Below, piece after piece: positions 5,697-47,041 of a stretch of DNA of 64,000 nucleotides. The stretch is taken from the sequence record PQ416618.1; one strand, written 5' to 3'. Origin of the DNA: Escherichia phage vB_VIPECOMC06. A model generated the notes under the pieces. The model did not search any database, had not been told where the DNA came from, and saw nothing but the letters and a program-made list of their open reading frames with translations. The position numbers were made by a program, and so were the translations under genes. Position 1 is the stretch's first letter. The number at the start of each line of letters is the position of its first letter.

Positions 5697-5730
5697 GTTT
5701 ACAACTAAGTAGGACTATGATATAGTAGTC
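5697..5730 (+). promoter_or_regulatory. T4-type early promoter with palindrome around -10
   Basis: GTTTACaactaagTAGGACTAtgaTATAGTAGTCCTAtc. Confidence 0.6.
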
Positions 5731-5752
5731 CTATCTAAAAGAGGATAACATC

Positions 5753-6016
5753 ATGAAATTTAAATTTTTCTACGCAAAACATAAAGTAACAGGCGAATTT
5801 GTTTCAATGTACAACACTGCAGATGACGAAGGGATGATTTATACCCATTTGGGACTATCTCATTGGGACTCGGACGTGCCTTATATGTCATCTGAAGCCG
5901 AAATAACTCGTCTGGTTAATGGACATATGAACGACCATTTTGGTGTTATTCTTTCTAAAGACCTTAAAGAGGTTATCAACAAAGGATATATGGAACTCGC
6001 GGAAGTTGAGATATGA
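5753..6016 (+). CDS. hypothetical early protein
   Basis: 87-aa ORF preceded by an early promoter and AGAGGA SD. Confidence 0.55.
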   Translation: MKFKFFYAKHKVTGEFVSMYNTADDEGMIYTHLGLSHWDSDVPYMSSEAEITRLVNGHMNDHFGVILSKDLKEVINKGYMELAEVEI

Positions 6017-6205
6017 GCTCTAAAACGTGGATCGGAATATGGCTGCTTAGTATCCCTATGATTTGTATAATATTTTCAATTGCATTGAGGTACTTATGAA
6101 AAATGCACTTATTGTACTAAGAACAATTTGCGATACAGGTTTTTACATCGCATGTTCGTTCACTGGAACATGGTTGGCTTTAACATATTTTAATGTAATT
6201 TAATT

Positions 6206-6243
6206 GTTTACAACAAGGTAGGATTATGGTATAGTAGTCCTAC
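6206..6243 (+). promoter_or_regulatory. T4-type early promoter with palindrome around -10
   Basis: GTTTACaacaagGTAGGAttatggTATAGTAGTCCTAC. Confidence 0.6.
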
Positions 6244-6263
6244 TGGAACATGAGGAACACAAA

Positions 6264-6464
6264 ATGGCTAAGCTTTTTAAAGATGTTGAAATTGGTGAAA
6301 AATTTGTTCTGAATAATGGTCAGCAGCTTATTCGTGTAGCTTCTATCGCCGGACAAACTCATAACTGTATCGCCCCAACGTGTTGGACTCGATTCTTTAT
6401 TGAAGATGACACTGAATGTTTAACTGTTGAAGAGCTTTTTGAACGTTCTGATATAGCCGAATAA
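6264..6464 (+). CDS. hypothetical early protein
   Basis: 66-aa ORF preceded by an early promoter and GAGGAA SD. Confidence 0.55.
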   Translation: MAKLFKDVEIGEKFVLNNGQQLIRVASIAGQTHNCIAPTCWTRFFIEDDTECLTVEELFERSDIAE

Positions 6465-6466
6465 AA

Positions 6467-6503
6467 TTGTACAAACTCTCGAGAGCAGAGTATAATGCTC
6501 TCA
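6467..6503 (+). promoter_or_regulatory. early promoter upstream of ndd (variant -35) with palindrome flanking TATAAT
   Basis: TTGTACaaactctcGAGAGCAgagTATAATGCTCTC. Confidence 0.55.
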
Positions 6504-6540
6504 TGGATTACAAAAACATTAATCAATTGAGGAAATTAGC

Positions 6541-6987
6541 ATGTCCAAATATTTAACTCGTAAAGACCTTCTGGCAGTTGGCGGTGAAGTTGTTGCAGTA
6601 GTTCGTAATGGCGAATACGGTTCTGAAGTTTCTAAAGAGTTTCGTTCTCGTGAAGGTTTTTACTTCTTTGTTAAAGGTTCATCTGATTGGCGTCAAGTAG
6701 CAGCACGATTCTTTGTAGGACGTCAACGTTCTAAACAAGGGTTGGATGCAATTCTTTCTCACATTCGTCAAGGCCGTTCGCAACTAGCCCGTACTATGGG
6801 CACTAACAATATTGAATATGATGTAATCTTTGTTGCAGCTAAGAACATGAAACCCCTGACTACTGGTTACGGTAAAGGACAATTGGCTCTGGCATTCACT
6901 CGCAATCATACATCAGAATATCAAACACTCACTGAAATGAACCGTCTTCTGGCAGATAATTTCAAATTCATTCTGCAGAGTTACTAA
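6541..6987 (+). CDS. ndd: nucleoid disruption protein Ndd
   Basis: 148 aa; FYVGNQRSKQG...LSHIRQ.RSQLART...[39 protein letters not shown] block matches T4 Ndd. Confidence 0.9.
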
Positions 6988-6994
6988 TTTATAC

Positions 6995-7026
6995 AGGCCT
7001 ATTAAGCTAGGCCTTTAATTTATTTT
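6995..7026 (+). terminator. putative terminator after ndd
   Basis: AGGCCT-attaagct-AGGCCT stem-loop followed by a T-rich run. Confidence 0.5.
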
Positions 7027-7039
7027 TGAGGTAATTAAA

Positions 7040-7189
7040 ATGGTAGCATGGATTATTGCATTGCTGTGTTGGTCGTTTTTATTCGTTAACACTTTAGTTA
7101 CAGGCGAAACAACAGTATTTCAACAGGCTGTGTCACAAGGTACCTTAGCGGTCTTAGCTCTTCTTAACGTATTAAAAGGCGAGCAATGA
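7040..7189 (+). CDS. small hydrophobic membrane peptide (49 aa)
   Basis: MVAWIIALLCWSFLFVNTLVTGETTVFQQAVSQGTLAVLALLNVLKGEQ; GAGGTAA SD upstream; below the 60-aa cutoff of the ORF track. Confidence 0.5.
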   Translation: MVAWIIALLCWSFLFVNTLVTGETTVFQQAVSQGTLAVLALLNVLKGEQ

Positions 7190-7326
7190 TTAAGAAAATC
7201 TTAGCAGGAGCCTTCGGGCTCTTGTTGTTGCTTACTGTTCTGTACTACGGTGTGATGTTTGGGCTAATCCAAGTAGTGCTTTTCATTTCGGATGTTATAA
7301 TGGTTATTCGTTCATTAGTATGGTGA
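7186..7326 (+). CDS. small hydrophobic membrane peptide (46 aa)
   Basis: MIKKILAGAFGLLLLLTVLYYGVMFGLIQVVLFISDVIMVIRSLVW; ATGA start/stop overlap with the previous peptide. Confidence 0.45.
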   Translation: MIKKILAGAFGLLLLLTVLYYGVMFGLIQVVLFISDVIMVIRSLVW

Positions 7327-7330
7327 AAAT

Positions 7331-8656
7331 ATGCAATTGAATTCTCGTAATCTAAAAAGTATTATTGATAACGAAGCCTTAGCATATGCGATGTACACCG
7401 TTGAAAACCGTGCAATCCCAAACATGATTGATGGATTTAAGCCGGTTCAACGTTTTGTGGTTCATCGTGCGTTAGATTTGGCTCGTGGTAATAAAGAAAA
7501 ATTTCATAAACTTGCGTCAATTGCAGGCGGTGTTGCAGATTTAGGTTATCATCATGGCGAATCTTCTGCACAAGATGCAGGTGCATTGATGGCTAACACA
7601 TGGAACAACAACTATCCACTGTTAGATGGCCAAGGCAACTTTGGTTCTCGAACAGTCCAAAAAGCTGCAGCATCTCGTTATATTTTTGCTCGTGTAAGTA
7701 AAAATTTCTATAACGTATATAAAGATACTGAATATGCTCCAGCTCATGAAGATAAAGAACACATTCCACCAAAATTCTATCTTCCTATTATTCCGACAGT
7801 TCTTTTGAATGGTGTCTCTGGTATTGCAACCGGTTACGCAACAAATATTCTGCCTCATAGTTTTAAAACAGTCAAAAAGGCTGTATTACAAGCTCTTCAA
7901 GGTAAAAATGTCACTAAGCCAAAAGTTGAATTCCCGGAATTCCGTGGTGAAGTACATGAAGTTGATGGGCGTTATGAGATTCACGGAACATATAAGTTCA
8001 CATCTCGCACTCAAATGCAGATAACTGAAATCCCATATAAATTCGACCGTGAAACGTATGTGAGTAAGGTTCTTGACCCGTTGGAAGACAAAGGTCTAAT
8101 CTCATGGGAAGATGATTGCGGTGAACACGGCTTTGGGTTTAAGGTGAAGTTCCGTAAAGAGTACTCGCTTCCTGATGATGAAGAGCTACGTCATGAAAAA
8201 ATCATGAAAGATTTTAGTCTCATCGAACGTCGTTCACAAAACATCACAGTGATTAATGAAAAGGGTAAATTAGCGGTCTATGATAACGTAGTGGACTTAA
8301 TCAAAGATTTTGTTGAAGTCCGTAAGACTTACGTTCAAAAACGTATTGACAACAAAATCCTTGAATCTGAAAAAGCATTTAAACTGGCTTTTGCTAAGGC
8401 ACACTTCATCAAAAAAGTTATTACAGGTGAAATTGTGATTCAGGGCAAGACTCGTAAAGCTTTGACTGAAGAGCTAGCACAAATCGAAATGTACAAAGAA
8501 CATGTCGATAAACTGGTAGGCCTTAACATCTTCCATATCACTTCCGACGAAGCACGTAAACTGGCAGAAGAAGCTAAAGCTAAGAAAGAAGAAAATGAGT
8601 ATTGGAAGTCTACCGATGTTGTGACAGAGTACACTAAAGACTTGGAGGCACTTTGA
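7331..8656 (+). CDS. 52: DNA topoisomerase II medium subunit (GyrA-like)
   Basis: 441 aa; MQLN.R.LKSIIDNEALAYAMYTVENRAIPNMIDGFKPVQRF... matches T4 gp52. Confidence 0.95.
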   Translation: MQLNSRNLKSIIDNEALAYAMYTVENRAIPNMIDGFKPVQRFVVHRALDLARGNKEKFHKLASIAGGVADLGYHHGESSAQDAGALMANTWNNNYPLLDGQGNFGSRTVQKAAASRYIFARVSKNFYNVYKDTEYAPAHEDKEHIPPKFYLPIIPTVLLNGVSGIATGYATNILPHSFKTVKKAVLQALQGKNVTKPKVEFPEFRGEVHEVDGRYEIHGTYKFTSRTQMQITEIPYKFDRETYVSKVLDPLEDKGLISWEDDCGEHGFGFKVKFRKEYSLPDDEELRHEKIMKDFSLIERRSQNITVINEKGKLAVYDNVVDLIKDFVEVRKTYVQKRIDNKILESEKAFKLAFAKAHFIKKVITGEIVIQGKTRKALTEELAQIEMYKEHVDKLVGLNIFHITSDEARKLAEEAKAKKEENEYWKSTDVVTEYTKDLEAL

Positions 8657-8732
8657 GTGCCCTAGCCTTAGGATTTCTCGGTGCAATAGCTGCACTAGTG
8701 ATTTGGCTGTATCGGTTGGACAAACATGATTA

Positions 8733-8752
8733 GGGAGCTTCGGCTCCCTTTT
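8733..8752 (+). terminator. intrinsic terminator after gene 52
   Basis: GGGAGCTTCGGCTCCC hairpin followed by TTTT. Confidence 0.8.
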
Positions 8753-8773
8753 GTGCATTTTTCTCACAAAACA

Positions 8774-8802
8774 GTTTACATGTGCTTCAAACATGATATT
8801 AT
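8774..8802 (+). promoter_or_regulatory. T4-type early promoter upstream of motA
   Basis: GTTTAC + 17 nt + TATTAT. Confidence 0.6.
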
Positions 8803-8841
8803 AGACCTATCAAAACAAAACAACCAAATTGGAGAAATAAA

Positions 8842-9474
8842 ATGTCTAAAGTTACTTACATCATCAAAGCTTCTGAAAACGCTCTGAATGAAAAAACTGC
8901 TGCAATAATGGTTTATATCATTAAGAACAACTTCACCACTGCTGCCAATGTCCGTGAAGCTCTGGAAGCGGAATACAATGCATCAGTTGTTAACTCTAAC
9001 ATTGGTGTATTGATTAAGAAAGGTTTAGTCGAAAAATCCGGTGATGGACTTATAGCAACAGGCGAAGCAATGGATATTATCCAAAAAGCTGCAGACCTCT
9101 TTGCCCAAGAAAATGCTCCAGAACTTCTTCAGAAACGTAACACTAGAAAAGCACGTGGAGTTACTCCTGAAATGCATGAATTAGCAAACTTTGTTTTTGA
9201 AAATATTAAAGATAAAGTTGAAGTTAAAGAAATTGGTGAAAACCGTAGTAACTTGGAAGTTCGATTTGCAAAACGAGTTCTAGGTATTCGTCAGATCGAA
9301 ATTCGTCGAGATGGTTGTCTTAGAATATTTGCATACAACATGTCAGAAACTGAATCAAAACTGTTTACTTCTCTTGAAAATGATGTTAAAATTAAGATCG
9401 GTGGTAAATATACTTACATTGACTTCCCTAATGTATCCAAAGAAATCATTACCCTTGTAACTAACGTACTGTGA
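8842..9474 (+). CDS. motA: middle transcription activator MotA
   Basis: 210 aa; MSKVTYIIKAS...NSNIGVLIKKGLVEKSGDGLI.TGEA matches T4 MotA. Confidence 0.9.
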   Translation: MSKVTYIIKASENALNEKTAAIMVYIIKNNFTTAANVREALEAEYNASVVNSNIGVLIKKGLVEKSGDGLIATGEAMDIIQKAADLFAQENAPELLQKRNTRKARGVTPEMHELANFVFENIKDKVEVKEIGENRSNLEVRFAKRVLGIRQIEIRRDGCLRIFAYNMSETESKLFTSLENDVKIKIGGKYTYIDFPNVSKEIITLVTNVL

Positions 9475-9484
9475 GGAATACATA

Positions 9485-9829
9485 ATGAATAAGCTGAATA
9501 TTATTAACGAACTTCGTAAATGTGCAGAACCTACTCAGGAAGGATGGGATATTTGGTACCACGGGGCTTATTTAGGGACAATTGTAAAGATTAAAGCTGG
9601 GTTATATTTAATTATTCGCGAAAATTCTGAATTCCCTAATGGAGTAGCTCCTGGCGGTATACGTAAAAACTACATGGCAGCGATCAGTTCATTTGTTGAT
9701 GCAGCTTACGAAATCTATAAAGAAGATTATAAAGAATATCAGCAGTCACAACCGGTTATTCGTTCGATTGGTGTAAATAAACAAGCACAAAAATCTATTT
9801 GGCAACGTATTAAGGAATGGTTTAAATGA
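9485..9829 (+). CDS. hypothetical early protein
   Basis: 114-aa ORF, tightly packed after motA. Confidence 0.55.
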
Positions 9830-10287
9830 AATCATTTAAAGAACGTTTAGAGCTATTAGATTTGGCCTTGTCTCGTGAGACTCCTGAAAGTCTAGCAGAA
9901 AAATTCCAGTCCTATGGTTATAATTATTCTGCTGATGATATAATGAATGAAGTTCCTGAAATCTGTTGGCAAACGTGTTATTGGAATAATGACCAAAAAG
10001 TTCAACGTGTTATAGTATGTGCAGCTAATAGGTTTAAATTGAAGAGTGGTGGAACTCTGGTTATTCCTGGAGTTCGTCATTACTCTAAAGATATGGCTGA
10101 AGTACTTGATATAGTTGGTCCTCAATTAGTCTCTCAACAAGTTTGTGGTGACGATCAAGGCTTTATCGACCAATACTCTAATTATTGGACTCGTGAAGAA
10201 GCAATGATTATTGCAACGTATGCTGGACAGGTACGTATTGAACGTGGCGGAAGCGAGAAAGAACTTTATTCAGAGGACCTTTATTAA
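9826..10287 (+). CDS. hypothetical early protein
   Basis: 153-aa ORF, ATGA overlap with upstream gene. Confidence 0.55.
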
Positions 10288-10568
10288 TGAATATTAAACA
10301 ACTCCAGAAAGATGCTATTGAATCACGTATCCAAGATATCAAACGTCTTAATCATATGATGGAAGAAAACTATGGTATGTATGCTAATCAGCCTGGTTGG
10401 GACGCTTTAGACCATCCTTATTTGGTCAATTTATGTAAAGGTGATACGTTAGCAATTATTCGTGATGGGCTAAAACCTTTCTTGCGTGATATGTATATTA
10501 AAATGAACGAAGAAATTATTAGCTCGTTGCAATATCAATTAAGGAAATTAGATGATGAGAATAATTGA
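10287..10568 (+). CDS. hypothetical early protein
   Basis: 93-aa ORF, start overlaps upstream stop. Confidence 0.5.
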   Translation: MNIKQLQKDAIESRIQDIKRLNHMMEENYGMYANQPGWDALDHPYLVNLCKGDTLAIIRDGLKPFLRDMYIKMNEEIISSLQYQLRKLDDENN

Positions 10569-10779
10569 TTCTAAAGCAGATTATTTTAATTCTGTTAATG
10601 ATAAGAATAAAGCTTTAATTCGCCACTTTATTACTGAGATGGGATACACTGACTCTAAAGATTTGAAAGAGCACATTATCGAATGTTCTGTGGCTAAAAA
10701 GTTTTCTTTTACCGATAAATGTTTAAACGAGGTTATAAAGCATTATGAACAATCTTGTAGCAAAACACGATTTCAATAA
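10552..10779 (+). CDS. hypothetical early protein
   Basis: 75-aa ORF overlapping the upstream gene. Confidence 0.45.
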   Translation: MMRIIDSKADYFNSVNDKNKALIRHFITEMGYTDSKDLKEHIIECSVAKKFSFTDKCLNEVIKHYEQSCSKTRFQ

Positions 10780-10853
10780 GGCTTCTGTTCATAAGGACAA
10801 GAAGAAATCAGAACTTCAATCTAAACGCAAACAAAAACATAAGGGTAAAGACT

Positions 10854-11153
10854 ATGCTTACTAAAATCAAAGAAAATCCTGCCACTGAACTTGTTATTCG
10901 TTGTGAAGAACTTGCAGAGCTTTATCAGGTTAACCGAGAAGTGTATCGTAGTGTTATCATAGATATGGAAGATGAAGTCTGCTCTCGACTTGAGTTTAGT
11001 GTTGATTTCAGTCATTTTAAACCTGGTGAAATCACTATTGTATTTGGTTCTGACTACACCGAAGAACAGGCTCTTAATGCCCTAGAATATGAAATATCAT
11101 TCTTCGACATACAGGACTACATTGATAGTTATAAGGAACAATATGAGTCATAA
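10854..11153 (+). CDS. strongly acidic small protein, possible DNA mimic (Arn-like anti-restriction candidate)
   Basis: 99 aa with roughly 23 Asp/Glu against 8 Lys/Arg; sits just upstream of asiA where T4 has arn; identity not verified. Confidence 0.4.
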   Translation: MLTKIKENPATELVIRCEELAELYQVNREVYRSVIIDMEDEVCSRLEFSVDFSHFKPGEITIVFGSDYTEEQALNALEYEISFFDIQDYIDSYKEQYES

Positions 11154-11304
11154 TCTTCAGAACGTAGTAGAGGCCGAACGTGAGCGTGAGGCTTTAGTCT
11201 ATAATGAACTATTAGCTCAGTTCTTAGCCTTACACTCGTATGAACAGGAAGACTATACCAATTACGTTAAAAGCGTAGAAAAAGCCGTTTACAATCAACA
11301 CTGA
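11143..11304 (+). CDS. hypothetical small protein (53 aa)
   Basis: ATG at 11143 overlapping the upstream stop; MSHNLQNVVEAERE... Confidence 0.4.
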   Translation: MSHNLQNVVEAEREREALVYNELLAQFLALHSYEQEDYTNYVKSVEKAVYNQH

Positions 11305-11350
11305 TAATGGTACTATATCCATATCAACTAAGTGGAATGAATAAAACGTT

Positions 11351-11623
11351 ATGAATAAAGACATTGAAATCGTACGTGAAATTATTACTATTGCTTCTAT
11401 TTTGATTAAATTCTCTAGGGAAGATATTGTTGAAGACCGAGCAAGTTTCATCGGATTCTTGAATGAGATTGGAATTAAAAAAGATGGTCGGCAGCTAAAT
11501 CAGAATTCGTTCAGAAAACTAATTACAAATTTAACTGCCGAAGAAAAGAAAACACTGATTAGTGAATTCAACGAAGGTTTTGAAAATATTTATCGTCATT
11601 TAGCGATGTATTCTAACAACTAA
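11351..11623 (+). CDS. asiA: anti-sigma70 factor AsiA
   Basis: 90 aa; MNK.I..VREIIT.ASILIKFSREDIVE.RA.FI.FLNEIG...NQNSFRK...L..E.KKTLI.EFNEGFE matches T4 AsiA. Confidence 0.92.
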   Translation: MNKDIEIVREIITIASILIKFSREDIVEDRASFIGFLNEIGIKKDGRQLNQNSFRKLITNLTAEEKKTLISEFNEGFENIYRHLAMYSNN

Positions 11624-12283: not shown

Positions 12284-12292
12284 AATACCTCC

Positions 12293-12844: not shown

Positions 12845-12849
12845 ATTAT

Positions 12850-21802: not shown

Positions 21803-21832
21803 AGTTTACGCTTTCAAATGAGTATGTTACTA
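21803..21832 (+). promoter_or_regulatory. early promoter upstream of rnh
   Basis: GTTTAC + 18 nt + TACTAT. Confidence 0.5.
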
Positions 21833-21865
21833 TAGACAAGTTGACTAACTGAACAAGAGGTTCAT

Positions 21866-23060: not shown

Positions 23061-23376
23061 TATTAAACCGGTTGATGAGGCCGGTTTATCTGAACAAGAA
23101 TTAGCGGTAAAACACGATAAAGATGATATCGCTAAATTGCTTGACCGACAAGAAAACGGATTCATTATCGAATCCATGGTTGAACAATTTGGTATGTCTT
23201 ATTTAGAAGCAACAACTGCTTTCTTGGAAGAAAATTCTATTCCAGAAACACAATTTGCTAAATTTATTCCTACAGGAATTGTTGAAAAAATTACAAGCGA
23301 AGCAATTGATGAAAACATGCTTCGCCCATCAGTTGCTCGTGGTGAAAAAACTAATACGTTAGATTTCTTATTATGA
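23038..23376 (+). CDS. 33: late transcription co-activator gp33
   Basis: 112 aa; MTQFSL.DI.PVDE.GLSE.EL...LLDRQENGFIIE.MVE.FGMSYLEATTAFLEENSIPETQFAKFIP matches T4 gp33. Confidence 0.93.
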   Translation: MTQFSLSDIKPVDEAGLSEQELAVKHDKDDIAKLLDRQENGFIIESMVEQFGMSYLEATTAFLEENSIPETQFAKFIPTGIVEKITSEAIDENMLRPSVARGEKTNTLDFLL

Positions 23377-24056
23377 AATACGTTGTGTATAAAACTACCA
23401 ATAAAATAAATGGTAAAATTTATATAGGCGTACACAAAAAACATAAAGAGAAAGATTGGTATATTGGGTCTGGCCGCGCTATATTAGCGGCCAAAGCTAA
23501 ATACGGACTAAAAAATTTTTATACTGAAGTTCTTTATGAATATGATAATGACAAGGACGCCTATAAAAAAGAAGCAGAATTGGTTAATGAAGATTTTGTT
23601 TTGCGAACTGATACTTATAACCTGGTTCCAGGTGGTAAAGGTGGCCCTGGTAAAAAACAAAGTGATGAAGCTAAAAGGGCTATTTCACTTTCTAAAATAG
23701 GGAAACCTAGATCTGAAGAGACTAAGGCTAAAGTATCTAAAACCAGATTAGAAAGAAAAATACCATCACCTAATAAGGGTAAGAAACTATCTGAAGCTCA
23801 TAAATTAGCTTTGAGTAAAGTCCGAAAAGGGCGAAAAACGAATAAGCCGATGCCTGATTCAACCAAAGAAGCTCTTAGAATAGCAAATTCAAAGCCGCAT
23901 TCTAAAGAAAGAACTATTAAAAAACAAAAACCTATAATTATTGATGGTATAAAATACTCATCATGTACAGAAGTTTCGGATGTTTTTAATATTTCTGCAT
24001 CTCTAGTTACGTATAGACTTAAATCTTCAAAATGGCCTGGATGGAACTATGATTAA
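23373..24056 (+). CDS. GIY-YIG family homing-endonuclease-like protein (Seg-like), free-standing
   Basis: 227 aa; N-terminal YKTTNKINGKIYIGV (YIG element) plus a Lys/Arg-rich C-terminal DNA-binding-like region; ATGA overlap with gp33 stop. Confidence 0.65.
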   Translation: MKYVVYKTTNKINGKIYIGVHKKHKEKDWYIGSGRAILAAKAKYGLKNFYTEVLYEYDNDKDAYKKEAELVNEDFVLRTDTYNLVPGGKGGPGKKQSDEAKRAISLSKIGKPRSEETKAKVSKTRLERKIPSPNKGKKLSEAHKLALSKVRKGRKTNKPMPDSTKEALRIANSKPHSKERTIKKQKPIIIDGIKYSSCTEVSDVFNISASLVTYRLKSSKWPGWNYD

Positions 24057-25725: not shown

Positions 25726-25747
25726 GGGAGACTTCGGTCTCCCTTTT
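25726..25747 (+). terminator. intrinsic terminator after gene 32
   Basis: GGGAGACTTCGGTCTCCC followed by TTTTG. Confidence 0.85.
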
Positions 25748-25774
25748 GAGTATCTGTAAATTGCCGAAAAAGTT

Positions 25775-25803
25775 GTTTACTTTTCCTTTAAACATGATAC
25801 TAT
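25775..25803 (+). promoter_or_regulatory. T4-type early promoter
   Basis: GTTTACttttcctttaaacatgaTACTAT; near-identical to the motA promoter. Confidence 0.6.
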
Positions 25804-25832
25804 AGACTTATCAACAACATGAGGAAATCAAA

Positions 25833-26219
25833 ATGGAAATCGGAAAATCTTATATCATTAACCCTTTATTTAAAGACGACTTTGCTAACGAGTGCCGTTG
25901 CAATGCAATGATGCTAAATTTAATAGAGAAGCACGGACCTAGTTTTGTTGTAGATGAAATGGAAAGTGATGATTGTGCTGGTGACTGTGTGGTACGTGTA
26001 ACTATGGAAGACGGCACTGAATACATGGCCGGTGGCCCACTTGAGACGTATTTTGAGATTTACTCTGAAGAATTCAAATACTTTACTGAGGTAACTTTAG
26101 AAAAGCCTCAACCTACTAACGAAGGTATAACTTTAGGTGTAACAAAAATCCATTGTATCGTAGATGAAACCAACGTCGACGAAATCATCAAACTTTTGCA
26201 AAAAACTTTTAAAAAGTAG
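25833..26219 (+). CDS. hypothetical early protein
   Basis: 128-aa ORF after an early promoter, GAGGAAA SD. Confidence 0.55.
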   Translation: MEIGKSYIINPLFKDDFANECRCNAMMLNLIEKHGPSFVVDEMESDDCAGDCVVRVTMEDGTEYMAGGPLETYFEIYSEEFKYFTEVTLEKPQPTNEGITLGVTKIHCIVDETNVDEIIKLLQKTFKK

Positions 26220-26258
26220 TTTACAACAAGATAGGGCTATGTTATAGTAGCCCTATCA
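26219..26258 (+). promoter_or_regulatory. T4-type early promoter with palindrome around -10
   Basis: GTTTACaacaaGATAGGGCTAtgtTATAGTAGCCCTATC. Confidence 0.6.
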
Positions 26259-31832: not shown

Positions 31833-32243
31833 ATGAAAGATATTGCCGCCGAATATTCCTTTATTAAATATACAGAATTGGAGCTATTAGAAGATGCAAC
31901 AATTAAAACAGTTGATGTCCCTAATAAGAAAAATGTCATATACGCTATTGCTATAGATGACGAACTTGTGTATATTGGTAAAACCAAGAATTTAAAGAAA
32001 CGCATTAACTATTATCGAACAGCCATAAATCGAAAAGACCAGACTTCAGATTCAAGAAAATCTCTTATGATTTTGGATGCCTTAATGCAAGGCAAAAAGG
32101 TTGAATTCTGGGCCCGCCAATGTTTTGACCTTTCAGTCACCAACGAACTTGGTTCAATGACCATCGCAACAATGGACCTTGAAGAACCGCTTTTTATCAA
32201 AAAGTTCAACCCGCCTTGGAATATCCAACATAAGAAAAAGTAG
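31833..32243 (+). CDS. denA: endonuclease II (GIY-YIG family)
   Basis: 136 aa; MK.IA.EYSFIKYTELEL...NVIYAIAI.DELVYIGKTKNL.KRINYYRTAINRKD...PPWNIQHKKK matches T4 DenA. Confidence 0.92.
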   Translation: MKDIAAEYSFIKYTELELLEDATIKTVDVPNKKNVIYAIAIDDELVYIGKTKNLKKRINYYRTAINRKDQTSDSRKSLMILDALMQGKKVEFWARQCFDLSVTNELGSMTIATMDLEEPLFIKKFNPPWNIQHKKK

Positions 32244-32272
32244 TTTACATGCCACAAGGATTGTGGTACAAT
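32243..32272 (+). promoter_or_regulatory. early promoter upstream of rnlA
   Basis: GTTTACatgCCACAAggaTTGTGGTACAAT. Confidence 0.55.
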
Positions 32273-33426: not shown

Positions 33427-33456
33427 GTTTACAAACACCACGGAAGGTGTTACTAT
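33427..33456 (+). promoter_or_regulatory. early promoter upstream of alc
   Basis: GTTTACaaacaccacggaaggtgtTACTAT. Confidence 0.55.
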
Positions 33457-34618: not shown

Positions 34619-34833
34619 CTAAAGAACAGCACGAATACATTAAAGGGCTTATCTATGAATCTGAAATGGCGGCTATGATTTATGGGCGACAGATTCAACG
34701 ATTAGAATCTTTGCCTCCGACTAACGACCGCTTGTTAGTTCAGTCTCGTGCTAATCTGAAAAATGAATATCAGAATAAGTGGGCAGTAGCGACTAAAGCT
34801 CTTCACGAGTATATTGAATCTTTAGTAAAATAG
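34609..34833 (+). CDS. hypothetical small protein
   Basis: 74-aa ORF overlapping the upstream stop. Confidence 0.5.
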   Translation: MPMTKEQHEYIKGLIYESEMAAMIYGRQIQRLESLPPTNDRLLVQSRANLKNEYQNKWAVATKALHEYIESLVK

Positions 34834-34868
34834 TTTACAAACTCTCGGGAGCAGAGTATAATGCTCCT
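34833..34868 (+). promoter_or_regulatory. early promoter with palindrome flanking TATAAT
   Basis: GTTTACaaactctcgGGAGCAgagTATAATGCTCC. Confidence 0.6.
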
Positions 34869-36102
<1,234 letters not shown>

Positions 36103-36784: not shown

Positions 36785-36818
36785 GTTTACAACATGGTGG
36801 AGTTGTGATACTATAACT
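36785..36818 (+). promoter_or_regulatory. early promoter driving the operon that includes the DAHP-synthase-like gene
   Basis: GTTTACaacatggtgGAGTTgtgaTACTATAACTC. Confidence 0.55.
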
Positions 36819-36842
36819 CTACCAACAAATGAGGAAATAGAA

Positions 36843-39834: not shown

Positions 39835-39997
39835 TTACTACCATGCGTCAGCAAAATGTTAGCTGTGTAAGTCATGGTAGGTATGATGACGGGTTTACGG
39901 TTATCCTGTCGTTAAATATCCAAAACCTATGTTCCCCTTGAGGGCTTGAGCAGGCAATGTCAATAAGTCCTGCATTTTCATTTAAAGAGAATTTATA

Positions 39998-40177: not shown

Positions 40178-40182
40178 TTTTA

Positions 40183-40205
40183 GGGAGACTTCGGTCTCCC
40201 TTTTG
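40183..40205 (+). terminator. intrinsic terminator after the rIII-region small gene
   Basis: GGGAGACTTCGGTCTCCC followed by TTTTG. Confidence 0.85.
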
Positions 40206-40236
40206 TGCGTTTAGGGCAGAAAAAGTTTAAAAAAGA

Positions 40237-40266
40237 TGTTTACTCTCCTGTAGGATGTGTTACTAT
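40237..40266 (+). promoter_or_regulatory. T4-type early promoter
   Basis: GTTTACtctcctgtaggatgtgtTACTAT. Confidence 0.55.
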
Positions 40267-40307
40267 AGACTTGTACCACCTAATCAATAAAACAACCGGA
40301 GAATAAA

Positions 40308-40679: not shown

Positions 40680-40683
40680 AAAT

Positions 40684-40722
40684 GTTTACTTTGGTACAGG
40701 TTTTGTTATTATAGACCTGTAC
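40684..40722 (+). promoter_or_regulatory. T4-type early promoter with palindrome around -10
   Basis: GTTTACtttGGTACAGGttttgtTATTATagaCCTGTACC. Confidence 0.6.
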
Positions 40723-40753
40723 CAACAAACAACTTAAACATCTGGAGAATAAA

Positions 40754-41119: not shown

Positions 41120-41129
41120 TCTTAAAAAT

Positions 41130-41148
41130 GGAGGCTTCGGCCTCCTTT
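41130..41148 (+). terminator. intrinsic terminator
   Basis: GGAGGCTTCGGCCTCC hairpin followed by TTT. Confidence 0.7.
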
Positions 41149-41160
41149 GAGGAAAATATT

Positions 41161-41448
41161 ATGTTTATGACCACTTATTTCGATACTCGTAAAAATTTCT
41201 GTGAAGTTGTTTTCTCTAAAGCTGGTAAAGACGTTCCTGCCGACAAACAACCTACTCGTGAATCTATTAAGGCTTATGCTGATGTTGTATGCCCGGTAGA
41301 ATTCCGTACTGTTAATGGACGTGATACCCTGGCAATCACTAAGCTCAACCGTGACATCAATATCGACCCAAGTGTCGCCCGTGAAGTCAATACCTCTGAC
41401 ATCTATGGTGGTAATGTTAAATCACACGGCTTTCAGATGAGGTTCTAA
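41161..41448 (+). CDS. hypothetical protein
   Basis: ATG at 41161 downstream of the terminator hairpin; the track start at 41128 lies inside the hairpin. Confidence 0.45.
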   Translation: MFMTTYFDTRKNFCEVVFSKAGKDVPADKQPTRESIKAYADVVCPVEFRTVNGRDTLAITKLNRDINIDPSVAREVNTSDIYGGNVKSHGFQMRF

Positions 41449-41642
41449 TGCAACTATTCTTATCACAAACAGTCCAGTTAAAAGGCATAGGTATTCCTGG
41501 AATGATTTCAAAGGTTCTACCTGCTTTTAAATTAGGTAATGTTACTATTAAAAAAGCCTACGCCGTCTTATGGGTCGATGGAACTGAAGACGTTCGCATG
41601 AGTTCTGAATTAGAAGTTATCAAAAACCTTAAAAGACTATGA
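41448..41642 (+). CDS. hypothetical small protein
   Basis: 64-aa ORF. Confidence 0.45.
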   Translation: MQLFLSQTVQLKGIGIPGMISKVLPAFKLGNVTIKKAYAVLWVDGTEDVRMSSELEVIKNLKRL

Positions 41643-42091
41643 TTGAAATCAGAAGCAATTTTCCATGGCCGTCATGTGCATTAAGTAACTTTGCTAAATG
41701 GCCTTTTGTTATGGATGGTATTCAATTCGGAGGTCTTGAAGGATTTCTCCAAGGATGTAAGGTGAAAAATATTGAACAACAAAAACGTATATTTGGGTTG
41801 TCCGGATTGGCTGCACAGCAAGCTGGAAGGTCTTATGCAAGAGCTCAGGACCGTGGGACTCTCTTCTGGTTAGGAGTTCCATTTTCAAGATACTCCGAAG
41901 CGTGGAAAGAATTATACACAAATGCATATTTTGAAGCCGCGATCCAAAACAAGGGGTTTCGTGATGCCTTACAAGCCTCTAAAGGAAAAATTTTGAAGCA
42001 CAGCATGGCTAGCGGTCTAACAAAAGATGATACAATACTAACCGAAGCTGAATTTATTGATGTGTTAAACCTATTAAGAGACTCTTTATGA
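41639..42091 (+). CDS. NADAR/YbiA-like (DUF1768 family) domain protein
   Basis: 150 aa; LSNFAKWPFVMDGIQFGGLEGFLQGCKV resembles the YbiA core FSNFA.WP..VDG...SEHYFQAQKF; C-terminal region follows the same family pattern. Confidence 0.5.
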   Translation: MIEIRSNFPWPSCALSNFAKWPFVMDGIQFGGLEGFLQGCKVKNIEQQKRIFGLSGLAAQQAGRSYARAQDRGTLFWLGVPFSRYSEAWKELYTNAYFEAAIQNKGFRDALQASKGKILKHSMASGLTKDDTILTEAEFIDVLNLLRDSL

Positions 42092-42912
42092 AACCTACTA
42101 TTTTGACCGATATTGATGGTGTATGTTTAAGCTGGCAATCCGGACTTCCTTATTTTGCCCAAAAATATAATCTTCCATTAGAACATATTTTAAAAATGAT
42201 TCAGGACGAAAAATTTATTTCTCCTGGTAAACTATTCAATACCGACGATAACCTTGGTAAACAATTAATAGAAAAATATAATAGCTCTGATTTTATTCGT
42301 TACTTAGCGCCTTATTCAGATGCTCTTCGAGTTATCAATAAACTAAAAGAAGACTATAATTTTGTAGCCGTGACGGCGCTAGGTGATTCAATTGATGCTC
42401 GATTGAATAGACAATTTAATTTGAATGCTTTGTTCCCAGGCGCTTTCTCTGAAGTAATGATGTGTGGTCATGATTCTTCAAAGGAACAATTATTCGAACT
42501 AGCTAAAACAAAATATAACGTGATTTGTTACGTTGACGATTTAGCTCATCACTGTGACCATGCAGCAGAAATTCTTAATGTACCGATTTATTGGTTGGCT
42601 CGAGGTGAACGTGATGCCATTCCTCGTACTGCACAACGTGTACACACGTGGGATGATATTGAATCTCGTTTGGTTCCACCTGAGCATAAGTCAGGTTCAG
42701 ATCGTGAAGACCTTTTAAAACGATTGGCCGATTTGCTTAAAGAATCTGGTGCAACAAGTCCAGGTGCATGGCCTAATCAAATCGGCGGCCCCTCGACAAC
42801 ACGTACTCCATATACCTGGCGAACTCCAGGACCAACTGATATGCAGCCGTGGTGGACGATTCAAAACTTTCCTTTAGATTCGTCTAAATGGACTTGGTCT
42901 ATAAATTGTTAA
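42088..42912 (+). CDS. HAD-superfamily hydrolase-like protein
   Basis: 274 aa; N-terminal ILTDIDGV (HAD motif I, DxDG[TV]); later YVDD acidic motif. Confidence 0.5.
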   Translation: MKPTILTDIDGVCLSWQSGLPYFAQKYNLPLEHILKMIQDEKFISPGKLFNTDDNLGKQLIEKYNSSDFIRYLAPYSDALRVINKLKEDYNFVAVTALGDSIDARLNRQFNLNALFPGAFSEVMMCGHDSSKEQLFELAKTKYNVICYVDDLAHHCDHAAEILNVPIYWLARGERDAIPRTAQRVHTWDDIESRLVPPEHKSGSDREDLLKRLADLLKESGATSPGAWPNQIGGPSTTRTPYTWRTPGPTDMQPWWTIQNFPLDSSKWTWSINC

Positions 42913-42921
42913 GGGTTAATT

Positions 42922-43191
42922 ATGTTTGTAGTTCATGATATTACAGATGGCAAAAACACAACGCGTGACTACGGTCACGTTAACATGTTCTTTCGAGACT
43001 GGCCATTGTTTCGTTCAGTAAAAGACGCAGAAATATTTAAAGAGTGTGTTGAACAAGGGTTCATCTACATTTCAGAATACTATGTTGAAGGACTCGGTAA
43101 ATGGATTACCACTTATCAGAAAACGCTGAAATCGCTTCTAGATGAAGTGGCTTATAATAGAACCGTAACCAAAATCGAGGACATCAAATGA
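42922..43191 (+). CDS. hypothetical small protein
   Basis: 89-aa ORF with AGGG SD. Confidence 0.5.
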   Translation: MFVVHDITDGKNTTRDYGHVNMFFRDWPLFRSVKDAEIFKECVEQGFIYISEYYVEGLGKWITTYQKTLKSLLDEVAYNRTVTKIEDIK

Positions 43192-44681
43192 TTTTAGATA
43201 TTTTAAACCAAATAGCTGCGATCGGTTCTACTAAAACAAAACAAGAAATCCTTAAGAAAAATAAGGACAACAAATTACTTGAACGTGTGTATCGTTTAAC
43301 ATATGCACGTGGTATCCAGTATTATATTAAGAAATGGCCGGGGCCAGGTGAAAGGTCTCAAGCATATGGTCTTCTTGAATTAGATGACATGTTGGATTTT
43401 ATTGAGTTCACATTAGCCACTCGTAAACTCACTGGTAATGCTGCAATTAAAGAGCTCATGGGTTATATCGCTGATGGTAAACCTGATGATGTAGAAGTCC
43501 TTCGACGTGTAATGATGCGCGACCTTGAAGTAGGTGCTTCAGTGTCTATCGCGAATAAGGTGTGGCCTGGACTTATTCAATTGCAACCACAGATGTTAGC
43601 ATCTGCATATGATGAGAAATTGATTACTAAAAATATTAAATGGCCTGCATTTGCCCAATTAAAAGCAGATGGTGCTCGTTGTTTCGCTGAAGTTCGCGAT
43701 GATGGTGTTCAATTCTTTTCTCGTGCCGGTAACGAATATCACGGTCTTACTCTATTAGCGGATGAACTAATGGAAATGACTAAAGAAGCTCGTGAAAGAC
43801 ACCCTAATGGGGTTTTAATCGACGGTGAATTAGTTTATCATTCATTTGATATTAAAAAGGCTGTGAGCTCAGGAAATGACCTGTCGTTCTTATTTGGTGA
43901 TAATGAAGAATCTGAAGAAGTACAAGTTGCAGACCGTAGCACTTCAAATGGTTTAGCAAATAAATCTCTTCAAGGGACTATTTCTCCTAAAGAAGCGGAA
44001 GGTATGGTTCTTCAAGCCTGGGACTATGTTCCTTTAGATGAAGTCTATTCTGATGGCAAAATTAAAGGTCAGAAATACGATGTTCGTTTTGCTGCTCTTG
44101 AAAATATGGCTGAAGGCTTTAAGCGAATTGAGCCAATTGAAAATCAGTTAGTTCGTAATCTTGATGAAGCTAAAGTGGTTTATAAAAAATATGTTGACCA
44201 AGGTCTTGAAGGTATTATCCTTAAAAACCGTGATTCATATTGGGAAAACAAACGCTCTAAGAACCTAATTAAATTTAAAGAAGTTATTGATATCGCTTTA
44301 GAAGTTGTAGGATACTATGAACACTCTAAAGACCCTAACAAATTAGGTGGTGTCGAACTCGTATCACGTTGTCGTCGTATTACAACCGATTGTGGTTCAG
44401 GGTTTAAAGATACAACTCATAAAACAGTTGACGGTGTAAAGGTTCTTATTCCTTTAGACGAGCGTCATGATTTAGACCGTGAACGATTAATGACCGAAGC
44501 TCGTGAAGGTAAATTAATTGGACGTATCGCTGATTGTGAATGTAATGGTTGGGTTCATTCTAAAGGCCGTGAAGGTACTGTAGGTATTTTCCTTCCAATT
44601 ATTAAAGGGTTCCGTTTTGATAAAACAGAAGCGGATTCGTTTGAAGACGTATTTGGACCGTGGTCCCAGACAGGTTTATAA
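43188..44681 (+). CDS. 30: ATP-dependent DNA ligase
   Basis: 497 aa; MILDILNQIAAIGSTK.KQ.IL.KNKDN.LL.RVYRLTY.RG.QYYIKKWP... and adenylation lysine motif FAQLKADGARCFAEV match T4 DNA ligase. Confidence 0.95.
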   Translation: MILDILNQIAAIGSTKTKQEILKKNKDNKLLERVYRLTYARGIQYYIKKWPGPGERSQAYGLLELDDMLDFIEFTLATRKLTGNAAIKELMGYIADGKPDDVEVLRRVMMRDLEVGASVSIANKVWPGLIQLQPQMLASAYDEKLITKNIKWPAFAQLKADGARCFAEVRDDGVQFFSRAGNEYHGLTLLADELMEMTKEARERHPNGVLIDGELVYHSFDIKKAVSSGNDLSFLFGDNEESEEVQVADRSTSNGLANKSLQGTISPKEAEGMVLQAWDYVPLDEVYSDGKIKGQKYDVRFAALENMAEGFKRIEPIENQLVRNLDEAKVVYKKYVDQGLEGIILKNRDSYWENKRSKNLIKFKEVIDIALEVVGYYEHSKDPNKLGGVELVSRCRRITTDCGSGFKDTTHKTVDGVKVLIPLDERHDLDRERLMTEAREGKLIGRIADCECNGWVHSKGREGTVGIFLPIIKGFRFDKTEADSFEDVFGPWSQTGL

Positions 44682-44869
44682 TGAAAGCTTATTTAGAAAC
44701 AGTTGTTGTAGCTAAGAAGGATGGTGGAGATGTTTCCACCTCTTGCTCTCAGATTATATTAGATTTTCCTAATGAAAATTCGTATCGGGTTTTCGTAGAT
44801 AACGTTAATGGGTACGAAAAAGGCCCCAATTTTGAAGTTTATCGCACTTTGCTCCCGATTGTAGATTAA
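44681..44869 (+). CDS. hypothetical small protein
   Basis: ATG overlapping gp30 stop (TAATG); 62 aa; followed by a terminator. Confidence 0.45.
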   Translation: MKAYLETVVVAKKDGGDVSTSCSQIILDFPNENSYRVFVDNVNGYEKGPNFEVYRTLLPIVD

Positions 44870-44888
44870 GAGCCTTCGGGCTCTTTTT
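44868..44888 (+). terminator. intrinsic terminator after gene 30 region
   Basis: AGAGCCTTCGGGCTCT hairpin followed by TTTTT. Confidence 0.8.
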
Positions 44889-44924
44889 GGCATAAATATA
44901 AATTATTACTAAAAGGAAAACACT

Positions 44925-47012
44925 ATGTCTGAACAATTAAATGAAGTGTTTGAATCTGAAGGCAGTCTTCCTGTCGTCAATTTGAACCCTAAAGCTAAAG
45001 TTCCACAAGTCTGGAAAATTGGTGATGTTGATACAAACATTGTAGTTCGCTTATTCTCTTACCTTTCTGAAGGCGATGCTGTAAAACAAGTTAAACTTGG
45101 CGACAAATACGCTCATGTTGTTATTATGAGTCTGTCTGAAAAGGGTAATCTCGCTGAATTGAAAAACGGCCTTGGTCCTGCTCCTATTGATGCAATCAAC
45201 ACCATTTTCAATACAGTATATGAACAAGTTAAAGCTCTTCGTATGGATGCAGTTCTGTTCCGATTCCCTACAAAGAAATTGAAAGGACGCGGACAACAAC
45301 TTCAAACTCTTCTTGCTCGTTTAGTTTCTACTAAAACCGGTGGTCGTTTTAAAGTATTGTCGGCAATGTATCAATTCACAGGTAAACACACCTATGTGAT
45401 GATGGTTCGTAAAAATGCTAACATTGAAGATATTAAAGGCATCCCTAACATTAACACAGAGTTGTACACGAAAGTTGATTCTGACGTTGGAGAAGTTTAT
45501 GTGAGTAAAAAGACTGGTGAAATGGTCACCAAAGAAACGGCTATCGCTGGTTCTATTGCTGCTGTAGAAGAAAAACGTAAAGATAAGCCTGTTATTGCTC
45601 GTACTAAAATTTCTCGTCGTGCTATTGCAGCAAGTCAATCTTTAGAAGCTGACCGCCAAGAAGGTGAGTTATTCCAGAAATACGAAAATTCTGCTAAAGA
45701 AGTTAGTGGCCCAGCTACAGCCGAATTACTTCCTGAAGCATATGAAATCGTACTAGCCCAAGCATCGTCCACAGCAAAAGGCACTTTAGTTGCTGATATC
45801 GAAAATAAGATTTATAATCGTATTGATGAATCCTTTAGATTTGCTGATGAAGTTTCTTATGGTAGTGTTATTAAACCAACTTTAGAAAAGTTTGCTAAGA
45901 AAATTAAAACTGAAAAAACAACATCTGTTAAAGCATTAGCTGCTTTTGTTGAAGCTGCAAATGAAATTGCAGACTCTATTAAAGACGAATGGTTTGAAGA
46001 TTTTAGACGTGATAATTTCCAACTGGCTGACGACGTTTTAGCTGAAGTATCTGAAAAAACTTGGAAACAACGTAAATCAGCGTTCTTGTCTAATGTGATG
46101 TATACTTATGCACGAGAATCGGCTAGAGGCACCTTTAATATAACAATGAATCGGGTCCCTAATCAATACTCTGTTGCTGAAAAACGAGCTATTCGTGAAT
46201 ATGCCTCTTCTGCGTATACTGATATCAATAATATGTTGTTAGGTCGTTATAAACCAGATTTTTACGATGTTGCAGATGAAGATGAAGTTAAACGCGCTAT
46301 TGATGGTCTTGATTCAGCGTTTTTAAATGGAGACCGTTTACCTGAAGGACTAACGTTATATAGAGCTCAGTCTATCAGAATGCCTATTTACGAAGCAATG
46401 GTTAAAAATAAGGTATTCTACTTCAGAAACTATGTTTCCACTTCACTAGCTCCTATTATTTTCGGTGGGTTTAAAGAGAACGTTGCCCTTGGACTTGCTC
46501 CTGAAGAAGTTCGCAAAGAGCTTAACATTGACAATAATGACGAAGGTGTTACTATTTCTCCTAGTCTGGTGCGTACCGCTATGCATGCACCAGACCAAAT
46601 CCGTGTTAACGTTGGATGGGCTATTGATGGCGCCCATAAAGTTAACGTGATTTATCCTGGACAGTTGAGTAATCACCCTAATGAGCAAGAAATTATTTTG
46701 CCTAGAGGTATTCTCTTGCAGATAAATAAAATTACAGATGCGTCATCTGACACCGGTGCAGGTTTAGAATCCAACCTTAAATTTATTCAAGCTGAAGTCA
46801 TGTCCTCAGACCAGTTGGACGAAGCTGTCATTTACGATGGTGATGTTCTCATGGAAACAGGCGAGGTGGTTGCTATGACTGGTGAAATCGAATCGGATGA
46901 GCCGGTATCGTTCTCTTCATTTGTAGAAAAAACTAGTGCTCCTAAAGGATTGAAATTGTTAGCATCTTTAATGGATTTAGAATCAGTTCCGTTTAAATTT
47001 GTCCAAGGATAG
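44925..47012 (+). CDS. alt: Alt ADP-ribosyltransferase (packaged, modifies host RNA polymerase)
   Basis: 695 aa; location after gene 30 and overall match to T4 Alt; ART-like Y..Y.R..S / STS region near residues 480-520. Confidence 0.85.
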   Translation: MSEQLNEVFESEGSLPVVNLNPKAKVPQVWKIGDVDTNIVVRLFSYLSEGDAVKQVKLGDKYAHVVIMSLSEKGNLAELKNGLGPAPIDAINTIFNTVYEQVKALRMDAVLFRFPTKKLKGRGQQLQTLLARLVSTKTGGRFKVLSAMYQFTGKHTYVMMVRKNANIEDIKGIPNINTELYTKVDSDVGEVYVSKKTGEMVTKETAIAGSIAAVEEKRKDKPVIARTKISRRAIAASQSLEADRQEGELFQKYENSAKEVSGPATAELLPEAYEIVLAQASSTAKGTLVADIENKIYNRIDESFRFADEVSYGSVIKPTLEKFAKKIKTEKTTSVKALAAFVEAANEIADSIKDEWFEDFRRDNFQLADDVLAEVSEKTWKQRKSAFLSNVMYTYARESARGTFNITMNRVPNQYSVAEKRAIREYASSAYTDINNMLLGRYKPDFYDVADEDEVKRAIDGLDSAFLNGDRLPEGLTLYRAQSIRMPIYEAMVKNKVFYFRNYVSTSLAPIIFGGFKENVALGLAPEEVRKELNIDNNDEGVTISPSLVRTAMHAPDQIRVNVGWAIDGAHKVNVIYPGQLSNHPNEQEIILPRGILLQINKITDASSDTGAGLESNLKFIQAEVMSSDQLDEAVIYDGDVLMETGEVVAMTGEIESDEPVSFSSFVEKTSAPKGLKLLASLMDLESVPFKFVQG

Positions 47013-47041
47013 TTTACAAACACATGGATGTGTGATACTAT
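47012..47041 (+). promoter_or_regulatory. T4-type early promoter
   Basis: GTTTACaaaCACATGgatGTGtgaTACTAT. Confidence 0.55.

Follow-up and report, generated by a model that had tools for sequence, protein, structure and literature searches.

Hairpins embedded in early promoters of an RB69-like Escherichia phage are promoter-early stem-loop cassettes

The early region of Escherichia phage vB_VIPECOMC06 (sequence record PQ416618.1) raises the question of why so many of its early promoters are built around an inverted repeat. The stretch analyzed, 64,000 nucleotides (nt) in length and referred to here as the window, had been predicted from its letters alone to hold at least eight such promoters, with a common -35 element and perfect palindromes enclosing or just preceding the -10 element; a DNA cruciform, a protein site, or a hairpin at the 5' end of the transcript was proposed as the structure under selection. 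It was found that the element is the promoter-early stem-loop (PeSL) cassette of T4-type phages, here in another genus, and is not new, a connection that the original prediction had not made. The evidence below concerns the reality of the hairpins, the strand in which they fold, and their relation to the transcription that arrives from upstream.

Inverted repeats around the -10 element

All ten sites cited in the original prediction were inspected in the window sequence. Seventeen candidate promoters were folded as RNA over 36 nt, from the end of the -35 element to 12 nt beyond the -10 element, and minimum free energies (MFE) were compared with those of dinucleotide shuffles (z score) and with every 36-nt stretch of the window. 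An inverted repeat of 7 to 13 pairs surrounds the -10 hexamer at 5697, 6206, 6467, 26219, 34833, 36785, and 40684, with MFE values of -12.0 to -18.7 kcal/mol (z of -2.8 to -6.6), which upholds seven of the eight predicted hairpin promoters. As few as 0.84% of the 36-nt stretches across the whole 64 kb fold at -12 kcal/mol or below, and since 7/17 promoters do so, all in one fixed register, chance is excluded; the comparison with shuffled sequence that had been proposed as a check thus places the repeats far above expectation. The eighth promoter, 47012, has only ACACAT-gg-ATGTGT in its spacer, which folds no better than shuffles whether as RNA or as DNA, and does not belong with the others. 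The promoters with repeats are as follows, with MFE in kcal/mol.

5697-5734, + strand: early promoter with embedded hairpin, 5' of the open reading frame (ORF) at 5753-6016; -35 GTTTAC 5697-5702, -10 TATAGT 5721-5726, arms 5709-5718 and 5725-5734; MFE -13.2, z -3.5
6206-6244, + strand: early promoter with embedded hairpin, 5' of the ORF at 6264-6464; -35 6206-6211, -10 TATAGT 6230-6235, arms 6217-6227 and 6234-6244 with one U·G pair; MFE -13.6, z -4.0
6467-6502, + strand: ndd promoter with embedded hairpin; -35 TTGTAC 6467-6472, -10 TATAAT 6491-6496, arms GAGAGCA 6481-6487 and TGCTCTC 6496-6502; MFE -12.0
26219-26257, + strand: frd.1-type promoter with embedded hairpin; -10 TATAGT 26243-26248, arms 26230-26240 and 26247-26257 (GATAGGGCTA...TAGCCCTATC); MFE -18.7, z -6.6
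34833-34868, + strand: early promoter with embedded hairpin; -10 TATAAT 34857-34862, arms GGGAGCA 34847-34853 and TGCTCCT 34862-34868; MFE -12.2
36785-36824, + strand: cd.2-type promoter with embedded hairpin; -10 TACTAT 36809-36814, arms 36795-36807 and 36812-36824, 13 pairs of which 3 are G·U; MFE -16.9, z -5.8
40684-40724, + strand: gene 30.7-type promoter with embedded hairpin; 17-bp spacer, -10 TATTAT 40707-40712, arms 40692-40703 and 40713-40724; MFE -16.9, z -5.2
32243-32272, + strand: rnlA promoter with a weaker hairpin wholly in the spacer, CCACAA-gga-TTGTGG at 32250-32268; MFE -8.3, z -2.5
33427-33456, + strand: alc promoter with a weak spacer hairpin, ACACC-acggaa-GGTGT at 33434-33451; MFE -7.3, z -1.8
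47012-47041, + strand: early promoter with a nonsignificant 6-bp repeat only, 2-nt gap, at 47020-47033; z 0.09 as RNA and 0.21 as DNA

The two repeats that had been quoted, GAGAGCA-gagtataa-TGCTCTC at 6481-6502 and GATAGGGCTA...TAGCCCTATC at 26230-26257, are exact. Hairpin-bearing promoters do form a subclass, and the absence of a hairpin noted at 8774 (motA) and 25775 extends to 21804, 40238, and 62340. Two generalizations held only in part: the -35 element said to be common to all, GTTTAC, is TTGTAC at 6467, and the stems at 6206, 34833, and 36785 contain G·T pairs and are thus not perfect palindromes. The promoters conform to GTTTAC/TTTACA-N17-TAnnnT, with an AT content of 67 to 83% in the 30 nt upstream, and are the top-scoring matches of a generic sigma-70 scan. 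At least 10 copies of the cassette are present in 42 kb, among them subfamilies that are near identical over approximately 40 bp (5697/6206/26219 and 6467/34833). Rfam covariance models applied to the whole window at gathering thresholds gave zero matches.

Arm covariation and the strand that folds

To compare arms between phages, homologous regions of 40 to 47 kb were taken from T4, VR7, JS98, Melville, and one Krischvirus, and promoters were matched via the downstream gene. A search with the Ndd protein returned three near-identical loci only, and orthologues were taken from pattern scans and annotated phage genomes. The ndd arms are GAGAGCA/TGCTCTC in the window, GGGGTCA/TGACCCC in VR7, and CGAGAATCA/TGGTTCTCG in JS98, the window and VR7 being separated by three double changes within identical flanks. 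Orthologues of the frd.1 promoter carry GGCTAT/ATAGCC or GGTTAT/ATAACC, and the cd.2 orthologue in T4 has the arms GGTAGAGTT/AGCTCTACC. The spacer hairpin of rnlA reads CCACAT..GTGTGG in T4, CCACAC..GTGTGG in sequence L008, and CCACAA..TTGTGG in the window. At gene 30.7 the stem GGTACAGG/CCTGTACC is shared by five phages (the window, T4, JS98, VR7, and ST0) and exchanged for an unrelated stem in the more distant L030 and L098. Within the window, an A-T to G-C pair change distinguishes 5697 from 26219, both paralogous to the 6206 cassette, and one compensatory change of the same kind distinguishes 34833 from its paralogue 6467. An IMG/VR scan for GTTTACAA-N13-TGNTATAGT, a pattern that leaves every arm position unconstrained, recovered T4-like promoters with arms unrelated to those of the window yet fully complementary, such as GGTGTAGGAGTAT/GTACTCTTACACC, GGTAGGAAGG/CTTCCTACC, and GCTAACGAGACTAT/GTAGTCTTGTTGGT. 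Because the arms vary under a conserved geometry and change in a compensatory manner, selection on structure is indicated, as the original prediction had proposed; the compensatory substitutions it had suggested looking for occur at orthologous and paralogous promoters alike.

Pairing was quantified in a gap-free alignment of 78 T4-like early promoters with 18-bp spacers, assembled with no selection for stems. In the register centered on -12/-11, 60.6% of cells were paired, compared with 52.3 ± 1.2% in column shuffles (0/500), and the covariation score was 0.341 versus 0.227 ± 0.015. At least 9/11 pairs were formed by a promoter's own arms in 14.4% of cases and by arms swapped between promoters in 2.1%. 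That complementarity is a by-product of a palindromic consensus is partly true, as column shuffles still pair at 52% and registers slid by 1 to 3 nt at 34 to 45%, but own arms outpair swapped ones. Together with the shuffles and the genome-wide background, the arm-swap and slid-register controls rule out a chance origin. The consensus of this alignment is itself partly palindromic (T.GG..TAT G.TAT.ATA..CC.A). RB69-type early promoters are known to favor C at -3 to -1, and this preference may thus represent the 3' arm of the hairpin, not a polymerase contact.

Strand bias was examined in 292 unique promoters, which yielded 60 strong stems under a strand-symmetric score with equal penalties for G·T and A·C. 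Internal mismatches comprised 19 G·T and 1 A·C, compared with 180:122 in chance stems from the same genomes (p = 5e-4 for the 19:1 bias); with orthologues collapsed the ratio was approximately 14:1 (p = 5e-3). The sense fold was more stable than the antisense fold in 43/59 stems (43 versus 16; Wilcoxon, 3.7e-6), and stemless promoters were divided 69 versus 73. Owing to the G·T excess and the better sense fold, the constraint is placed on one strand, and selection acts on the hairpin that the sense strand forms when single-stranded. The folding molecule is most likely RNA, which is far more plausible than a cruciform or a symmetric protein site.

The same data bear on an operator for a dimeric DNA-binding protein, whether a phage or a host regulator of early promoters. 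Dyad symmetry over the -10 element is the classic position of a repressor site, but half-sites are not shared: within one genome the arms of different promoters bear no relation to one another, and between orthologues they undergo compensatory changes. Mismatches are strand asymmetric and loops range from 4 to 13 nt, so that an operator, and with it the protein site originally envisaged, is extremely unlikely.

The dyad center falls between the first two bases of the -10 element (-12/-11) in 21 of the 60 stems and within one base of this point in 13 more, while a second group of stems lies wholly inside the spacer. The usual loop is 8 nt, TGnTATAn, and consists of the bases that sigma-70 requires. 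With the -10 element at -12 to -7, the 5' arm occupies approximately -26 to -16, and the 3' arm begins at approximately -7 and ends at about -1 to +4. As the 5' arm lies upstream of the start, the promoter's own transcript is unable to form the hairpin and can hold just the last 0 to 4 nt of the 3' arm. A 5' hairpin on that transcript controlling its stability or processing, the RNA option of the original prediction, would suit an RNA-like structure that tolerates G·U pairs but is excluded by this geometry, leaving it a probability close to negligible. The hairpin can be formed only in read-through RNA from upstream promoters.

A DNA-level explanation would have extrusion, or folding of the nontemplate strand, present the -10 element in single-stranded form, giving a supercoiling-sensitive promoter or faster open complex formation. 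The dyad, fixed in about 35/60 stems and in several genera, coincides with the upstream edge of the transcription bubble, the loop holds TGnTATA, and a DNA hairpin in the nontemplate strand would also be consistent with the G·T asymmetry. Extrusion of a cruciform from 7- to 11-bp arms is, however, energetically implausible, as the window hairpins fold at just -3.4 to -9.1 kcal/mol as single-stranded DNA, compared with -12 to -19 kcal/mol as RNA, and would have loops of 8 to 13 nt; the strand asymmetry also speaks against the cruciform first suggested. The left arm (-26 to -16) would still be duplex in the open complex, and T(-7) is paired at the base of the stem. Promoters 8774, 25775, and 62340 look as strong yet have no repeat, the spacer alone accommodates some of the hairpins (32243 and the GGGGATC type of Krischvirus JK32), and hairpin presence follows the upstream transcription context described below, not promoter type. 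Promoter tuning of this kind is decidedly unlikely.

The fixed dyad, the -10 bases in the loop, and the one-strand wobble might also signify functional coupling, although we regard this as very unlikely. One version would be a read-through-sensing promoter, in which a transient nontemplate or nascent-RNA hairpin, arising as an upstream polymerase passes, would switch the embedded promoter on or off; the other would be a hairpin-assisted sigma-70 promoter resembling those of phage N4. The early promoters of N4 are DNA hairpins with short stems and 3-nt loops on the template strand that are read by the virion RNA polymerase. They share with the window promoters an inverted repeat at the promoter core and recognition bases in the loop, whereas the window promoters are ordinary sigma-70 promoters with loops of 8 to 13 nt and weak DNA folding.

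Transcription context of the hairpins

Region 5000-9000 of the window shares 98% identity with Escherichia phages ST0 and HX01 and other Mosigvirus, by which the window is assigned to Mosigvirus (RB69/JS09-like) of the T4 family. Early and middle genes lie on the + strand in the order rIIA/B, denB, ndd, 52, motA, then 32, frd, td, nrdAB, rnlA, alc, pseT, cd, 31, rIII, 30, and alt, a series split by a block of tail-fibre genes on the - strand. The promoters that lack a hairpin are as follows.

8732-8808, + strand: motA promoter (-35 at 8774), no embedded hairpin; terminator GGGAGCUUCGGCUCCC-UUUU upstream at 8732-8753
25726-25809, + strand: promoter 25775, no embedded hairpin; terminator GGGAGACUUCGGUCUCCC-UUUU upstream at 25726-25747
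40183-40272, + strand: promoter 40238, no strong embedded hairpin; terminator GGGAGACUUCGGUCUCCC-UUUU upstream at 40183-40204
21804-21839, + strand: rnh promoter, first of the + strand block, at the divergent junction with gene 34, no hairpin
62340-62375, + strand: promoter at a divergent junction (upstream gene 61018-62298 on the - strand), no hairpin

Hairpin-bearing promoters begin 0 to 12 nt 3' of the stop codon of a co-directional gene; a stop at this distance from the -35 element is present at 5697, 6467, 26219, 32243, 33427, 34833, 36785, 40684, and 47012. Where a promoter lacks the hairpin and the gene before it runs in the same direction (8774, 25775, and 40238), a canonical GGGAG(A)CUUCGG(U)CUCCC-UUUU terminator is present 30 to 50 nt upstream; where the intergenic space is longer, a separate UUCG terminator replaces the hairpin. 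The divergent-junction promoters 21804 and 62340 have neither an embedded hairpin nor a stand-alone terminator, and the hairpin is absent where no co-directional transcription arrives from upstream. At the ndd junction of T4 and of two IMG/VR relatives (L070 and L011), the hairpin is present and the promoter is absent. Across 77 predicted promoters from six phages, embedded and upstream stand-alone hairpins were anticorrelated (4/27/21/25; odds ratio 0.18, p = 0.003). From this context at stop codons, terminators, divergent junctions, and the ndd junction, the hairpin behaves as though it belonged to the end of the upstream message.

The explanation that we consider probable is that the RNA hairpin in read-through transcripts delimits the upstream cistron, while homology for recombination arises as a by-product. 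RNA reading through from an upstream promoter would form the hairpin and mark the 3' boundary of the cistron, and the hairpin would then attenuate read-through and/or stop 3' exonucleases, as the hairpin of a stand-alone terminator does elsewhere. In compressed junctions it would merge with the promoter, the loop keeping the bases needed by sigma-70; the fixed geometry (dyad at -12/-11 and loop TGnTATAn) would then reflect constraint, only the spacer and discriminator bases being free to pair. The repeated, conserved cassettes of 40 to 60 bp would also offer homology for gene-cassette shuffling among close relatives. Signals would thus be tightly packed in T4-type phages, with one 40-bp cassette ending or protecting the upstream message, starting the next, and aiding swaps of small early genes. 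For annotation, the hairpins are not to be taken as operators or as structures of the 5' untranslated region.

Embedded hairpins resemble intrinsic terminators in being stable RNA hairpins at the 3' end of a cistron, at the same position in the junction as the UUCG terminators and mutually exclusive with them, and differ in the missing U-tract, the loops of 6 to 13 nt, and the AT-rich stems. Several observations weigh against a role in delimiting cistrons. No U-tract occurs 3' of the embedded hairpins, the flanks being A/C-rich (ATCAACAAC...; the 3' flanks include ATCTAAAAG, ATCAAATAA, AACAAATGA, and AACAAACAA), and canonical termination is consequently not expected. The G·T asymmetry fits a hairpin of the nontemplate DNA strand equally well, and the covariation counts are raw counts over mutually related sequences. 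The 77 promoters in the anticorrelation test come from a simple pattern finder, and the regions upstream of the embedded cases are coding, which makes a hairpin there less likely irrespective of function. As for shuffling, 2 of approximately 6 breakpoints between the window and ST0 fall at promoters (the 8774 segment and just 3' of the 34833 hairpin), which are few events.

A role as a translational insulator, in which the hairpin would keep the Shine-Dalgarno (SD) sequence open in read-through RNA, was rejected, as a partition-function test gave no consistent effect in either direction: the unpaired probability of SD/AUG was 0.40 to 0.64 in the wild type and 0.33 to 0.60 once the 5' arm had been shuffled. 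Translational control by hairpins that contain a promoter is known for T4 genes e, soc, and 49 (Uzan and Miller 2010, PMC3014915). As in those genes, read-through transcripts of the window can fold and the promoter's own transcript is without the 5' arm. There, however, the 3' arm masks the SD/AUG and the internal promoter is late, whereas in the window the 3' arm stops 15 to 30 nt before the SD and modeled SD accessibility is unchanged by shuffling the 5' arm.

A terminator scan of the + strand called no embedded hairpin, and 26230-26257 was called on the - strand only. Read on that strand, the hairpin is followed by TTGTTGTAAA and the T-rich complement of the UP element, making a weak antisense terminator with loss of its G·U pairs possible; such a role was set aside, as G·U becomes C·A on the - strand and the antisense folds are weaker.

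The UUCG terminators constitute a repeat family of their own. The UUCG-tetraloop terminator GGGAGACTTCGGTCTCCC is present in two identical copies 14 kb apart (25726-25743 and 40183-40200), and related copies occur at 8732, 4869, 16728, 41130, 44868, 47371, and 62679.

PeSL cassettes and recombination

In the published definition of PeSL, the stem-loop lies mostly between the -35 and -10 elements or overlaps the -10 element, and G-T pairs are marked (Arbiol et al. 2010, PMC2839356). One PeSL stem-loop cut lacZ expression as the rrnB T1 terminator does, and cassette exchange in RB49/phi1 produced indels and mini-circles, as documented by reporter and PCR data (PMC2839356). Comeau et al. 2014 (PMC4122927) later described PeSL in T4/PST and KVP40/nt-1 as well. 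Nolan et al. 2006 listed 57 RB69 early promoters, and hairpins are unmentioned there; beyond the PeSL papers, the literature yielded no T4 or RB69 transcript 3'-end maps and no prior description of dyad symmetry in RB69 early promoters.

The window cassettes share with PeSL an AT-rich upstream region, sigma-70-type -35 and -10 elements, a stem-loop mostly between these elements or over the -10 element and containing G-T pairs, and then the SD and ATG of an early gene that is usually small. They likewise occur in many copies per genome and may share the position of PeSL next to indel or replacement breakpoints between close relatives, as 2 of approximately 6 window/ST0 discontinuities lie at promoters. 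By position, seven stems lie over the -10 element and two in the spacer, and three promoters have a stem-loop just upstream. The intergenic order is that of PeSL, namely, an upstream stop codon, the cassette, and the SD and ATG of an early gene, the latter 20 to 45 nt 3' of the -10 element. The Krischvirus JK32 region carries the classic GGGAGTA-gtaata-TACTCCC in the same register as in the window. Because it matches published PeSL cassettes, the Mosigvirus case is no new kind of element.

Three differences from PeSL were found. Mosigvirus (RB69-like) is not covered in the PeSL papers; the window arms (TAGGnCTA/TAGnCCTA and GAGAGCA/TGCTCTC) are more AT-rich than the GGGG/CCCC type of RB49; and the legend for T4/PST places the stem-loops just upstream of the promoter (PMC4122927), whereas the embedded form dominates in the window. 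T4 has just two embedded cases in the homologous 47 kb. The PeSL concept is sharpened by the sense-strand G·U bias, the fixed dyad position, and the either/or relation with stand-alone terminators; these three results give concrete predictions for transcript-end mapping and leave the view of what the element is unchanged.

The T4 rnlA promoter resembles a MotA-box middle promoter (TGCTT) and keeps the spacer hairpin CCACAT-gga-GTGTGG, orthologous to window positions 32250-32268. Stem-loops are thus present in middle promoters as well, like the 'PmSL' of Comeau 2014.

A purely recombinational or mutational origin would make the repeats homology for shuffling, as in the PeSL mini-circle model, with complementarity kept by template switching at quasi-palindromes. 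Paralogous cassettes that are near identical over about 40 bp (5697/6206/26219 and 6467/34833) accord with this, as does the experimental demonstration of PeSL-mediated exchange in RB49/phi1 (PMC2839356). In ST0 a small additional ORF (gp121) precedes motA and lies between two copies of the segment from the motA promoter to its ATG (window 8773-8850 versus 8808-9206 in ST0, L001), which reads as a cassette insertion bounded by promoter repeats, and a gene replacement between the window and ST0 begins at 34877, 9 bp after the 34833 hairpin. These ST0 differences are consistent with a cassette-shuffling role; the remaining window/ST0 discontinuities involve tail-fibre genes or a mobile-looking ORF. 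In T4, the 14 bp between the cd.2 hairpin arms was once reported inverted, according to the RefSeq record. Template switching, however, yields perfect Watson-Crick repeats and leaves the 19:1 G·T excess and the greater stability of the sense fold unexplained, recombination homology requires no inverted repeat, and neither the anticorrelation with stand-alone terminators nor the absence at divergent junctions is accounted for. Recombination or mutation as the sole origin is unlikely.

The T4 record (NC_000866, 133300-133313; 11301-11314 of L125) describes these 14 nt in a misc_feature as 'inverted complement of previously reported sequence; corrects the early promoter Pe133295'. They (TTGTGATATTATAG, gene strand) are the exact segment between the cd.2 arms GGTAGAG and CTCTACC, orthologous to 36785, and the inversion is either an old sequencing artefact at the hairpin or a real inversion of the loop between repeats. 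In Salmonella phage Melville, two promoters 700 bp apart (20603 and 21294 of L127) have identical 36-nt cores with the hairpin GGGTTATGGT/ACTATAACCC, which looks like a recent cassette duplication. An ORF of 227 amino acids at window positions 23373-24056, between genes 33 and 59, is missing in ST0; it is probably a mobile endonuclease gene, occupying the position of the SegG-type homing endonuclease of T4.

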